DNA of 63,463 bases from Parcubacteria group bacterium Greene0714_7 (GTDB taxonomy: Bacteria; Patescibacteriota; Minisyncoccia; Phycocordibacterales; Phycocordibacteraceae), in the NCBI GenBank assembly GCA_007378985.1, contig VMHB01000004.1, forward strand, positions 1,012 through 64,474, read 5' to 3'. Shown here in pieces: positions 12,524 to 13,162 of this stretch (within the stretch, counting starts at the first letter, position 1; every line of letters begins with the position of its first letter). The notes beneath the pieces are model-generated. The model was not told where the DNA came from and did not search any database. It saw nothing but the letters and a program-made list of their open reading frames with translations. Both the position numbers and the translations under genes were made by a program.

Positions 12524-12565
12524 ATATAGCCCTCTAACAGACGGCCGTCTTTTAGGGAGCTATAT
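12524..12565. promoter_or_regulatory. Palindrome A1 (42 nt, 3 mismatches), candidate operator
   Basis: ATATAGCCCTCTAACAGACGG/CCGTCTTTTAGGGAGCTATAT. Abuts the regulator stop and lies 89 nt upstream of the ATG at 12435. Confidence 0.5.
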
Positions 12566-13122
12566 TATATTCGAAAAAGCTTCTTCAGACGCTCTTCCGA
12601 CTCAATTCTTTCGAGAACACCGTACAGTATGAATTTTGAGAGCGCTGATTCGCGCTGGATGAGTTGAACAAGTTCCTTGCAGTCATGTGGGAAAATCCAG
12701 ACACTCTGCTGTAGTTGCACGAAGCCCGCACGCTTCAAAATGTTCCGTACATGGCTACGCAGTAATCGGTATTTCTCAGGAATATCAAACACAACAATTC
12801 GCCATCGCCCATCCCACCGTGTGCCGTTTTGTAGGAGGGCGGCCGTGGTATGAATTGCACCGCCGAGCGCGTCGACACCTTTCTCGGTGAGAGAAAGTTT
12901 GTGTCCATGTTCAATAATGAACTTCATTTTTTTCAGCCGCTCAATAGCTTTCTTCTTACGATATCGGTGCTGTGCATGCTCACGCGCGCGTTTGAACATG
13001 AGACGGCTGGAGCGTGCAGAAAGCAGAAAACCGTACAGTAGGTCGCCTGCACTTAAATCTGCGAGGATATCTCGCTCAAGCGAGCCCAGTCGATGTTTCC
13101 GCCTTGCCTGCCTTTTTGGCAT
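12565..13122 (-). CDS. PaaX-like transcriptional regulator (N-terminal wHTH plus WDGRW..FDIPE..R module), paralog 1
   Basis: WDGRWRIVVFDIPEKYRLLRSHVRNILKRAGFVQLQQSVWIFP. Paralog of 52071..52652. Confidence 0.65.
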   Translation of the reverse strand: MPKRQARRKHRLGSLERDILADLSAGDLLYGFLLSARSSRLMFKRAREHAQHRYRKKKAIERLKKMKFIIEHGHKLSLTEKGVDALGGAIHTTAALLQNGTRWDGRWRIVVFDIPEKYRLLRSHVRNILKRAGFVQLQQSVWIFPHDCKELVQLIQRESALSKFILYGVLERIESEERLKKLFRI

Positions 13123-13162
13123 ATCACTCTATATTATACGGCCGTCTATTAGAGGGCTATAT
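13121..13162. promoter_or_regulatory. Palindrome A2 (right arm intact, left arm degenerate)
   Basis: CCGTCTATTAGAGGGCTATAT at 13142-13162. Overlaps the regulator start and lies 94 nt upstream of the divergent GtrA start. Confidence 0.4.

Follow-up and report, generated by a model that had tools for sequence, protein, structure and literature searches.

Why should the gene of a short PaaX-like protein be enclosed between two copies of the same long palindrome? The question is raised by a stretch of 63,463 nt from Parcubacteria group bacterium Greene0714_7 (assembly GCA_007378985.1, contig VMHB01000004.1, positions 1,012 to 64,474; referred to here as the window and numbered from its first letter), in which the gene of the 185-residue regulator R1 ends in one palindrome (A1) and starts in another (A2) of the same set, set A. 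The explanation that best covers the whole of the evidence, and that is probably correct, is that R1 is a "mini-PaaX" which binds the palindrome framing its own gene, represses its own synthesis from the upstream copy and uses the downstream copy as an auxiliary operator. More broadly, sequence comparison suggests that the conserved "site-gene-site" unit defines a large family of effector-less, PaaX/Cas2-like putative repressors in Patescibacteria, with private operators built on a common CG core. Full-text searches of the literature returned no description of such a family or of its architecture, which apparently makes the family undescribed.

The first step in answering the question is to ask whether the palindromes belong to the regulator gene at all. 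Both flanks were inspected in 80 homologous loci from GTDB genomes, the best-scoring of at least 587; these genomes are metagenome-assembled genomes (MAGs), and gene starts and sites were called with our own scripts. A locus was counted as bracketed when its better (reference) site had a counterpart in the other flank with a similarity higher than the 99th percentile between loci. On this basis, the same locus-specific palindrome of ~40 bp stands on both flanks in 61 of 79 loci, with a median identity of 0.78 for the opposite-flank recurrence vs 0.47 between loci, and the preliminary description of the window was right to tie the palindromes to the regulator gene. Many loci below the cut-off still have recognisable flanking sites when the site listing is inspected, and a more sensitive scan finds that most loci have a dyad-symmetric site of ~40 bp immediately ahead of the start and another immediately past the stop. 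The paired sites are 580-814 bp apart in 50 loci, and within ~200 nt of the genes, where 44 strong palindromes occur in 36 kb, their density is ~14 times that of the remainder of the loci, with 34 in 380 kb. True orthologs of R1 (79-95% identity) keep both sites as well as the synteny, which runs from a divergent GtrA-PMT_2-flippase group through R1 to the genes of a 540-aa membrane protein, Wzy_C and MurB; the unit is therefore a stable resident of the glycan locus in this lineage. Two contigs in the sample break at the palindromes: one (L062, 3513-3682) terminates by folding back on itself, with 84-nt arms that have the site at their centre, and another (L088, 4791-4794) stops 3 nt after the regulator's stop codon. 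Such breaks and the fold-back are likely assembler artefacts, and the sites may be under-represented in MAGs.

The same data bear on whether the palindrome is a dispersed repeat of the repetitive extragenic palindromic (REP) or miniature inverted-repeat transposable element (MITE) type that came to lie near the regulator by chance. The position of one further set-A copy, A4, between convergent genes would suit such an element, as would the fact that A3 and A4 are lineage-specific insertions. However, the window holds only four set-A and three set-B copies in 63 kb, the set-A pattern is found at a single place in all GTDB genomes, the site of another member occurs only at its own gene on a 652-kb contig, and the bracket recurs with different sequences in the 61 loci, and the copies have nothing in common beyond the palindrome. 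Behaviour of this kind, which the preliminary description had itself set against its proposal, was checked and is effectively refuted by copy number, linkage and the lack of a shared body, leaving chance placement extremely improbable.

What kind of protein is framed in this way? R1 and R2, a second paralog in the window, share 36% identity over 137 BLASTP-aligned positions (R1 residues 51-183). Both match the Pfam family of the central Cas2-like domain, PaaX_M (PF20803), above its gathering score (E 4.3e-20 for R1 and 6.3e-20 for R2), which is the only domain found, the Pfam scan of the two proteins giving no match to the N-terminal PaaX winged-helix domain. The C-terminal effector domain is absent, both chains (185 and 193 aa) ending directly after the Cas2-like domain, and the NCBIfam PaaX model TIGR02277 gives 28.8 bits (R1) and 48.6 bits (R2) vs a cut-off of 264.55. 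The NCBIfam Cas2 model TIGR01573 gives 26.6 and 29.8 bits, respectively, vs a cut-off of 24.5, and Pfam Cas2 falls just under its cut-off. R1 is thus a PaaX without its effector domain and not a true PaaX, so that the earlier label "PaaX-like" holds at most for the first two domains, of which the winged helix is a predicted one, and fails for the missing third. PADLOC returned only weak Cas2 models and PHROG no match.

A structure model built from 26 homologs has a predicted local distance difference test score (pLDDT) of 72 overall, with ~85 in the Cas2-like part and lower values (43-80) in the winged helix, where three helices and a beta wing are predicted. Foldseek aligns 132 columns of the model to 8a39; the first fold matches are E. 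coli PaaX (8a39) and Rv0674 (3kfw), followed by many Cas2 and VapD structures. At the sequence level, residues 50-150 of R2 align with PaaX residues 50-147, the mini-PaaX/PaaX alignment reaching E 7e-4, and a search of the PDB with the family profile found no significant match, its leads TubR (E 0.26) and, for R2, AspA (E ~0.6) being at noise level. R1 has 171 close homologs, all of ~185 aa, and the family comprises 2,539 clusters at 50% identity (E <= 1e-10), nearly all of 180-200 aa and, in these searches, confined to Patescibacteria-type MAGs. Across 63 members, the winged-helix half is highly variable, and W103, D104, R108, D113, R122, R126, G133, F134, S140, P145, C148 and F183 are near-invariant in the Cas2-like half. 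The Cas2-type motifs (D113, R122, R126 and QxSVW) are invariant, including the Asp of the hhhh(F/Y)DI strand, so that the position of the Cas2 catalytic Asp reads FDI throughout mini-PaaX vs SEG in E. coli PaaX. Six homologs (P0014, P0018, P0029, P0046, P0104 and P0108) are publicly named either "CRISPR-associated endonuclease Cas2" (CRISPR, short palindromic repeats that are clustered and regularly interspaced) or [quoted passage not shown]; either name misleads, since the 185-aa protein is solitary and comes with no cas1, CRISPR array or paa genes.

Whether such a protein and such a site form a pair can be judged from how the two vary together. Paralogs within one genome have arms that agree only at chance level (mean identity 0.41 over 14 pairs), and arm identity climbs with protein identity from 0.38 (proteins below 40% identity) to 0.71 (above 70%). 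All members have a core in common at the dyad, C/T-C-G when read outward and so CG(G/A)(C/T)CG overall, in which 94-97% of arms have G at position 3. When the four arms of one locus are compared, they agree well at positions 2-5 and 11-19 and poorly at 6-8, agreement falls to background past position 20, and the outer boxes (positions ~11-19) are ~30 bp apart from centre to centre, a bipartite, footprint-like pattern. The variable winged helix-turn-helix (wHTH) and the nearly invariant Cas2-like domain make a modular match to these private arms and this common core. A search for mutual information between residues and bases, aimed at the recognition helix, gave top pairs that are spread along the entire protein and mostly reflect the split between the R1 and R2 clades. 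Palindromy itself is maintained, by selection or by template-switch conversion between arms: symmetric copy-specific substitutions that preserve it were counted at 30 positions in 42 loci vs ~1 expected from independent hits. Template-switch conversion of one arm by the other belongs to the general picture of quasipalindrome mutagenesis.

It is at this point that a purely structural explanation has to be weighed, according to which the sites are RNA or DNA hairpins (terminators, mRNA stabilisers or cruciforms) that no protein recognises and that resemble each other through local duplication and arm conversion. In its favour, there are perfect stems whose predicted RNA energies lie between -24 and -31 kcal/mol, symmetric compensatory changes are frequent, and A3 and A4, although each is perfect, are not the same, with 3 differing positions per arm. 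Against it, pairing is loose at positions 6-8 and strict in two blocks, as in a protein footprint; the arms of orthologs are conserved across genomes, to the extent of one cross-genome pair with 100% arm identity at 77% protein identity; the upstream copies, which overlap promoters and start codons, are the least palindromic; T-tracts are not enriched after the sites (4/31 vs a background of 7.7%); and no Rfam family is matched at gathering thresholds in the window. Hairpins unrecognised by any protein are accordingly quite unlikely to be the whole answer.

If a protein does bind, what would it control from the upstream site? The preliminary description had placed an operator in the regulator's own promoter, and the arrangement agrees with this: the upstream site overlaps the -10 box and the start codon, as the operator of an autorepressor would. 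A -10-like hexamer pointing at the regulator is present in 58% of upstream sites vs 17% of random 50-mers, and among 77 loci these hexamers end 6-7 nt before the start codon in 34 cases, with at most 4 at any other spacing. This accumulation indicates that mini-PaaX genes are probably transcribed as leaderless mRNAs, with the operator lying over both the -10 element and the start. Most single-arm deviations (66/155) fall in the gene-proximal arm of the upstream site, as would be expected if that arm must also encode the promoter. A2 follows the pattern, since it pairs at only ~14/20 positions and its degenerate gene-proximal arm, on the coding strand CCGTATAATATAGAGTGATATG, has TATAAT inside; from its sequence, A2 is likely the operator for autorepression over the R1 promoter.

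The distance between the downstream site and the stop is 0-22 nt in R1-type loci; in the window, the last base of A1 is the first base of R1's TAA stop, and the last Ile codon and the stop fall within the outer ATATA(A/G) of A1, an overlap shared with the orthologs L086 and L087. The next gene is convergent in 36/76 loci and the downstream site is still present, so it belongs to the regulator unit and not to the neighbour. A -10 in the regulator's direction is found in 41% of downstream sites if the next gene is co-directional vs 15%, the background level, if it is convergent. It seems that these sites are recruited as promoter-operators only if a gene lies ahead to be transcribed. Judged from its position, the downstream site is probably an auxiliary operator, acting by looping or as a roadblock. 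The possibility that it is an intrinsic terminator was rejected, given the T-tract counts above and a terminator scan that calls a hairpin at 12450-12494 and none of A1-A4.

These features also invite an alternative in which the protein binds both sites mainly to isolate the ~0.6-kb unit from transcription that enters or leaves it in a tightly packed genome, or to organise the DNA locally, as a gene-framing insulator or roadblock and not chiefly as a classical promoter repressor. Such a role would suit a downstream site that is present at the stop whatever the next gene, upstream neighbours that are co-directional in 47/77 loci, and the finding that most members have no sites beyond the bracket. 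However, an upstream site over the -10 and the start codon predicts autorepression anyway, and behind A1 the window already has a distinct terminator-like hairpin; insulation would therefore add to autorepression rather than replace it, and as the principal function it is unlikely.

Comparison with known systems points in the same direction as the proposed autorepression. The operator of E. coli PaaX, TGATTC-N27-GAATCA, spans 39 bp with half-site centres 33 bp apart, and the protein represses its own promoter by occlusion (PMC9493321). A site of ~40 bp is hence normal for the PaaX fold (PMC9493321), although the earlier remark puts the palindromes at about three times the length of a typical operator. 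Mini-PaaX resembles E. coli PaaX (acting at the Pa, Pz and Px promoters) in having a predicted winged helix followed by a Cas2-like central domain, with 8a39 as the best PDB fold match, in a palindromic operator of ~40 bp overlapping its own promoter, which here is read from the arrangement of sites and genes, and in the distance of ~30 bp between outer boxes vs the 33-bp half-site spacing. Unlike E. coli PaaX, it has no C-terminal effector domain and hence no phenylacetyl-CoA site, and no paa genes are nearby; its site is palindromic along nearly the whole length, with a CGRYCG centre and a second copy at the stop codon; and it occurs as many paralogs per genome with private arms, keeps the Cas2-type Asp and was found in these searches in Patescibacteria only. 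Repressors that act at lac O1/O2, gal OE/OI and deo likewise pair an operator over the promoter with an identical one several hundred bp off, either within the transcription unit or past its end; in mini-PaaX, by contrast, the whole family has the second site fixed at the stop codon of the regulator itself, and the distances show no helical phasing. Short effector-less autorepressors with palindromic operators that diversify against cross-talk are known among the C proteins of restriction-modification systems and the type II antitoxins, from which mini-PaaX differs in its fold, its lack of a conserved adjacent partner gene and its much longer sites.

The likeness to Cas2 raises a different possibility. 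Mini-PaaX shares with Cas2 and the VapD toxins the ferredoxin-like fold, the hhhh(F/Y)DI strand and QxSV(F/W), and the Cas2 profile matches are weak but consistent. Unlike Cas2, it is fused to a predicted winged helix and solitary, with no cas1 among the called neighbours and no CRISPR array in the window, and its repeats are two in number and enclose the gene itself. The unit might nonetheless be a selfish or DNA-processing cassette, with a Cas2-like nuclease or recombination component working at the CG-rich dyad and each site marking one end of an excisable or mobile unit. The invariant D113, R122, R126 and QxSVW, of which true PaaX has lost the Asp position, would agree with this, as would the Cas2 match above the NCBIfam cut-off, neighbours that are unrelated housekeeping genes, A3 and A4 as insertions relative to related genomes, and flanking copies that, where the 2-nt centre is asymmetric, can be mutually inverted (L024, L041 and L080). 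On the other hand, there are no near-identical copies, the paralogs being ~36% identical and each having its own arms, and orthologs stay syntenic while protein and sites diverge in place. Furthermore, no homologs were found in phage records and plasmids gave only true PaaX matches; no recombinase is nearby, and no cas1 appears among the called neighbours or the 25 most frequent neighbour Pfam families listed; the window has no interspaced repeat (CRISPR) array; and the contigs read contain no inversion or empty-site variants. A mobile cassette is consequently very unlikely. An insertion sequence or transposon with terminal inverted repeats was considered separately and discarded, as paralogs are 36% identical with different arms, orthologs are syntenic and no transposase-like domain is detected with Pfam. 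A related proposal, that a wHTH-Cas2 protein with functional Cas2-type residues serves as a sequence-directed nuclease or DNA-processing factor at the CGRYCG dyad of the repeats enclosing its own gene, is very improbable; if true, a Cas2 homolog would be the basis of a minimal "repeat-gene-repeat" unit outside CRISPR, perhaps a self-excising or self-limiting module, or a relic bearing on how Cas2 and palindromic repeats became associated.

How far, then, does the influence of a mini-PaaX extend beyond its own gene? In the window, the set-A palindromes amount to four copies of 42-44 bp (12524-12565, 13121-13162, 28988-29029 and 29446-29487), and the 21-nt half-site with at most 3 mismatches occurs 7 times vs 0 in 100 dinucleotide-preserving shuffles. 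The preliminary description had located all four correctly, including A1 at the R1 stop, A2 over the R1 start and the perfect A3 and A4, and its set B is equally real, with three copies that bracket the second regulator. The features are collected in Table 1. Likeness between copies ends at the palindrome edges, except for A2/A3 (9 extra nt) and B1/B2 (34 nt). The left flank of A3 repeats the first ~9 nt beyond A2 on its R1-proximal flank (CTTTTTGRC), and this shared flank suggests that A3 arose by copying of the upstream site. A decayed regulator beside A3 was ruled out, tblastn with R1 and R2 at E <= 10 returning only the two intact genes and no more than ~9 nt of the flank being similar to the R1 start. 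B1 and B2 have an A-rich stretch of 34 nt in common (51961-51994 and 52704-52737; ~80% identity over a 76-nt alignment including the palindrome), which lies on the side where transcription towards the downstream genes would produce their leader and suggests duplication of a promoter-leader module rather than of the palindrome alone. The TATAAT-bearing arm of B2 is also present in B3.

Table 1. Regulator genes, palindromes and associated features of the window
Feature	Coordinates	Strand	Remarks
R1, mini-PaaX, 185 aa	12565..13122	(-)	Variable, predicted N-terminal winged helix and conserved Cas2-like domain, no PaaX_C
A1, downstream site of R1	12524..12565	.	21-nt arms with 3 mismatches between them
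A2, upstream site of R1	13121..13162	.	2-nt overlap with R1 ATG
Terminator-like hairpin	12450..12494	(-)	Perfect 21-bp stem, then TTTCTCG; after R1 and A1; RNA fold -36.6 kcal/mol
A3	28986..29031	.	Perfect palindrome, 23-nt arms; 44-89 nt upstream of ATG 29075 (98-aa gene)
98-aa conserved hypothetical gene	29075..29371	(+)	Between A3 and A4; TATACT, 7 nt, ATG as its own leaderless promoter
A4	29445..29488	.	Perfect palindrome, 22-nt arms; in 170-bp spacer between convergent gene ends
R2, second mini-PaaX paralog, 193 aa	52071..52652	(-)	36% identical to R1
B1, downstream site of R2	51995..52036	.	Perfect palindrome; 35 nt past R2 stop
B2, upstream site of R2	52738..52779	.	86 nt before R2 ATG; TATAAT in R2-distal arm
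B3, third set-B copy	56285..56325	.	65 nt upstream of 644-aa alpha/beta-hydrolase-like gene

The earlier proposal that the palindromes are operators in the promoters of neighbouring glycan genes fares poorly. It is not general, since members of the family have unrelated housekeeping genes beside them (rpsG in five genomes, tpiA, mur ligases, dnaG, rnhB and others), and the A sites lie off the neighbours' core promoters. R1 and R2 themselves stand among glycan, membrane and other unrelated genes with no paa catabolic link, and no paa family is among the 25 most frequent Pfam families listed (148 matched) for 127 neighbours of the 80 loci. A1-A3 sit upstream of the neighbours' core promoters, A2 and A3 by ~35-70 nt from leaderless ones and without overlap, and the terminator-like hairpin, with outer GTATAC ends and an embedded promoter-like match TTCAGA-17-TATACT placed 13 nt before ATG 12435, separates A1 from the next gene, the homologue of the 540-aa membrane protein (10819..12435; ~527-538 aa in the window). 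The arithmetic behind the reported spacings of 89, 94, 86 and 88 nt to the following starts is correct; their match is not robust, because the 94-nt figure hangs on the choice of ATG 13256. GtrA has four in-frame starts (13214, 13232, 13256 and 13262), of which 13232 is favoured by ortholog lengths and by a TATACT (13220-13225) 6 nt before it, and relative to this likely ATG A2 lies at about -111 to -70. Concerning rpsG, it stands tail-to-tail with an R1-type regulator in five Kaiserbacteria genomes (L006, L007, L008, L012 and L017) and is not directly before fusA; these loci are syntenic orthologs, yet each has different palindrome arms.

The gene between A3 and A4 belongs to a family with 141 matches at 60-91% identity, mostly of 98 aa and from Patescibacteria, whose protein gave no Pfam, PDB, PADLOC or PHROG match. 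Its promoter, TATACT-N7/8-ATG, is conserved, with A3 at about -87 to -46, and in the four relatives compared (L001 and L089-L091) the gene is always convergent with that of a GFO/IDH/MocA oxidoreductase. A3 is present in L001 and absent from L089-L091 (72-81% identity), and the spacer holding A4 is a lineage-specific insertion, the two genes overlapping by 4 nt with no spacer in all four. Beyond the window, an extra site copy within 3 kb was found at only 1/43 loci.

Taken together, the preferred explanation, binding of a mini-PaaX to its gene-framing palindrome, would work as follows. An R1 dimer would bind the ~40-bp palindrome on either side of its gene, the variable winged-helix domains reading, in each arm, the outer box that is specific to the locus (~11-19 positions from the dyad) and the invariant Cas2-like dimer, or another conserved surface, lying over the core CG(G/A)(C/T)CG, as the conservation patterns suggest. 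Occupancy of the upstream site would, from its position, cover the -10 and the leaderless start and shut off the regulator's own synthesis. The downstream site would raise this occupancy through a ~600-bp loop or block read-through, most likely as an auxiliary operator, and could double as the promoter-operator of a co-directional next gene. A3, A4 and B3 would be recent lineage-specific additions to small regulons. The binding itself, the dimer geometry, the looping and the sign of regulation at neighbouring genes are what we infer from these patterns and positions.

Several observations weigh against this explanation. The wHTH is predicted with only moderate confidence (pLDDT 43-80). The Cas2-type motifs, Asp included, are more conserved than pure dimerisation needs, and there is a small chance that the Cas2-like domain does more than dimerise. 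The dyad-to-dyad distance shows no helical phasing, the best value of a Rayleigh test over periods of 10-11.5 bp (p~0.02 at 10.0 bp) being unconvincing after multiple tests, a result that neither supports nor excludes looping. The frequent symmetric substitutions also fit selection for a hairpin or cruciform, or template-switch conversion between arms. Finally, the exact 24-bp core of one regulator's site, taking 12 bp to the left and right of the dyad, is restricted to the two flanks of that regulator on the 652-kb contig mentioned above and is found nowhere else in GTDB; with this core so confined and extra copies rare, many members may regulate only themselves, and their selective benefit would then be puzzling.

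Other features of the window deserve brief mention. Between MurB and a 786-aa Wzy_C gene lie 785 bp without a called gene (7383-8166), which hold a perfect 48-bp palindrome (8007-8054, centre AGTACT) and several hairpins; the counterpart is a 45-nt gap in the ortholog L086 and an 89-aa open reading frame (ORF) in L087, and a comparison of 7383-8166 with Rfam gave no family, only spurious microRNA-hairpin matches around 8007-8054. Further long perfect palindromes, unrelated to sets A and B and each a single copy in the window, occur at 3083-3131, 3022-3054, 38538-38573 and 39235-39265, with arms of 23, 16, 18 and 15 nt, respectively; they could be operators of other regulators or terminators. 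A 634-aa ORF (247..2151) contains two direct repeats of 211 nt (1679-2108), 82% identical and 219 nt apart, and its protein is therefore internally repetitive.

Almost nothing is known about transcription control in the Candidate Phyla Radiation (CPR)/Patescibacteria, which cannot be grown alone, and here is a regulator family, often with several paralogs per genome, whose predicted cognate site is written twice beside each gene. Hundreds of natural protein-operator pairs of this kind would make a recognition code for the PaaX-type winged helix derivable, and synthetic biology would gain from them a ready-made set of repressor/operator pairs that are mutually orthogonal. For these proteins, the widely used annotation "CRISPR-associated endonuclease Cas2" is corrected. 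For the organisms themselves, the puzzle is that a seemingly mostly self-regulating regulator is kept in so many copies in minimal genomes, and the hexamers in front of its genes provide direct sequence evidence for leaderless promoters in Patescibacteria.

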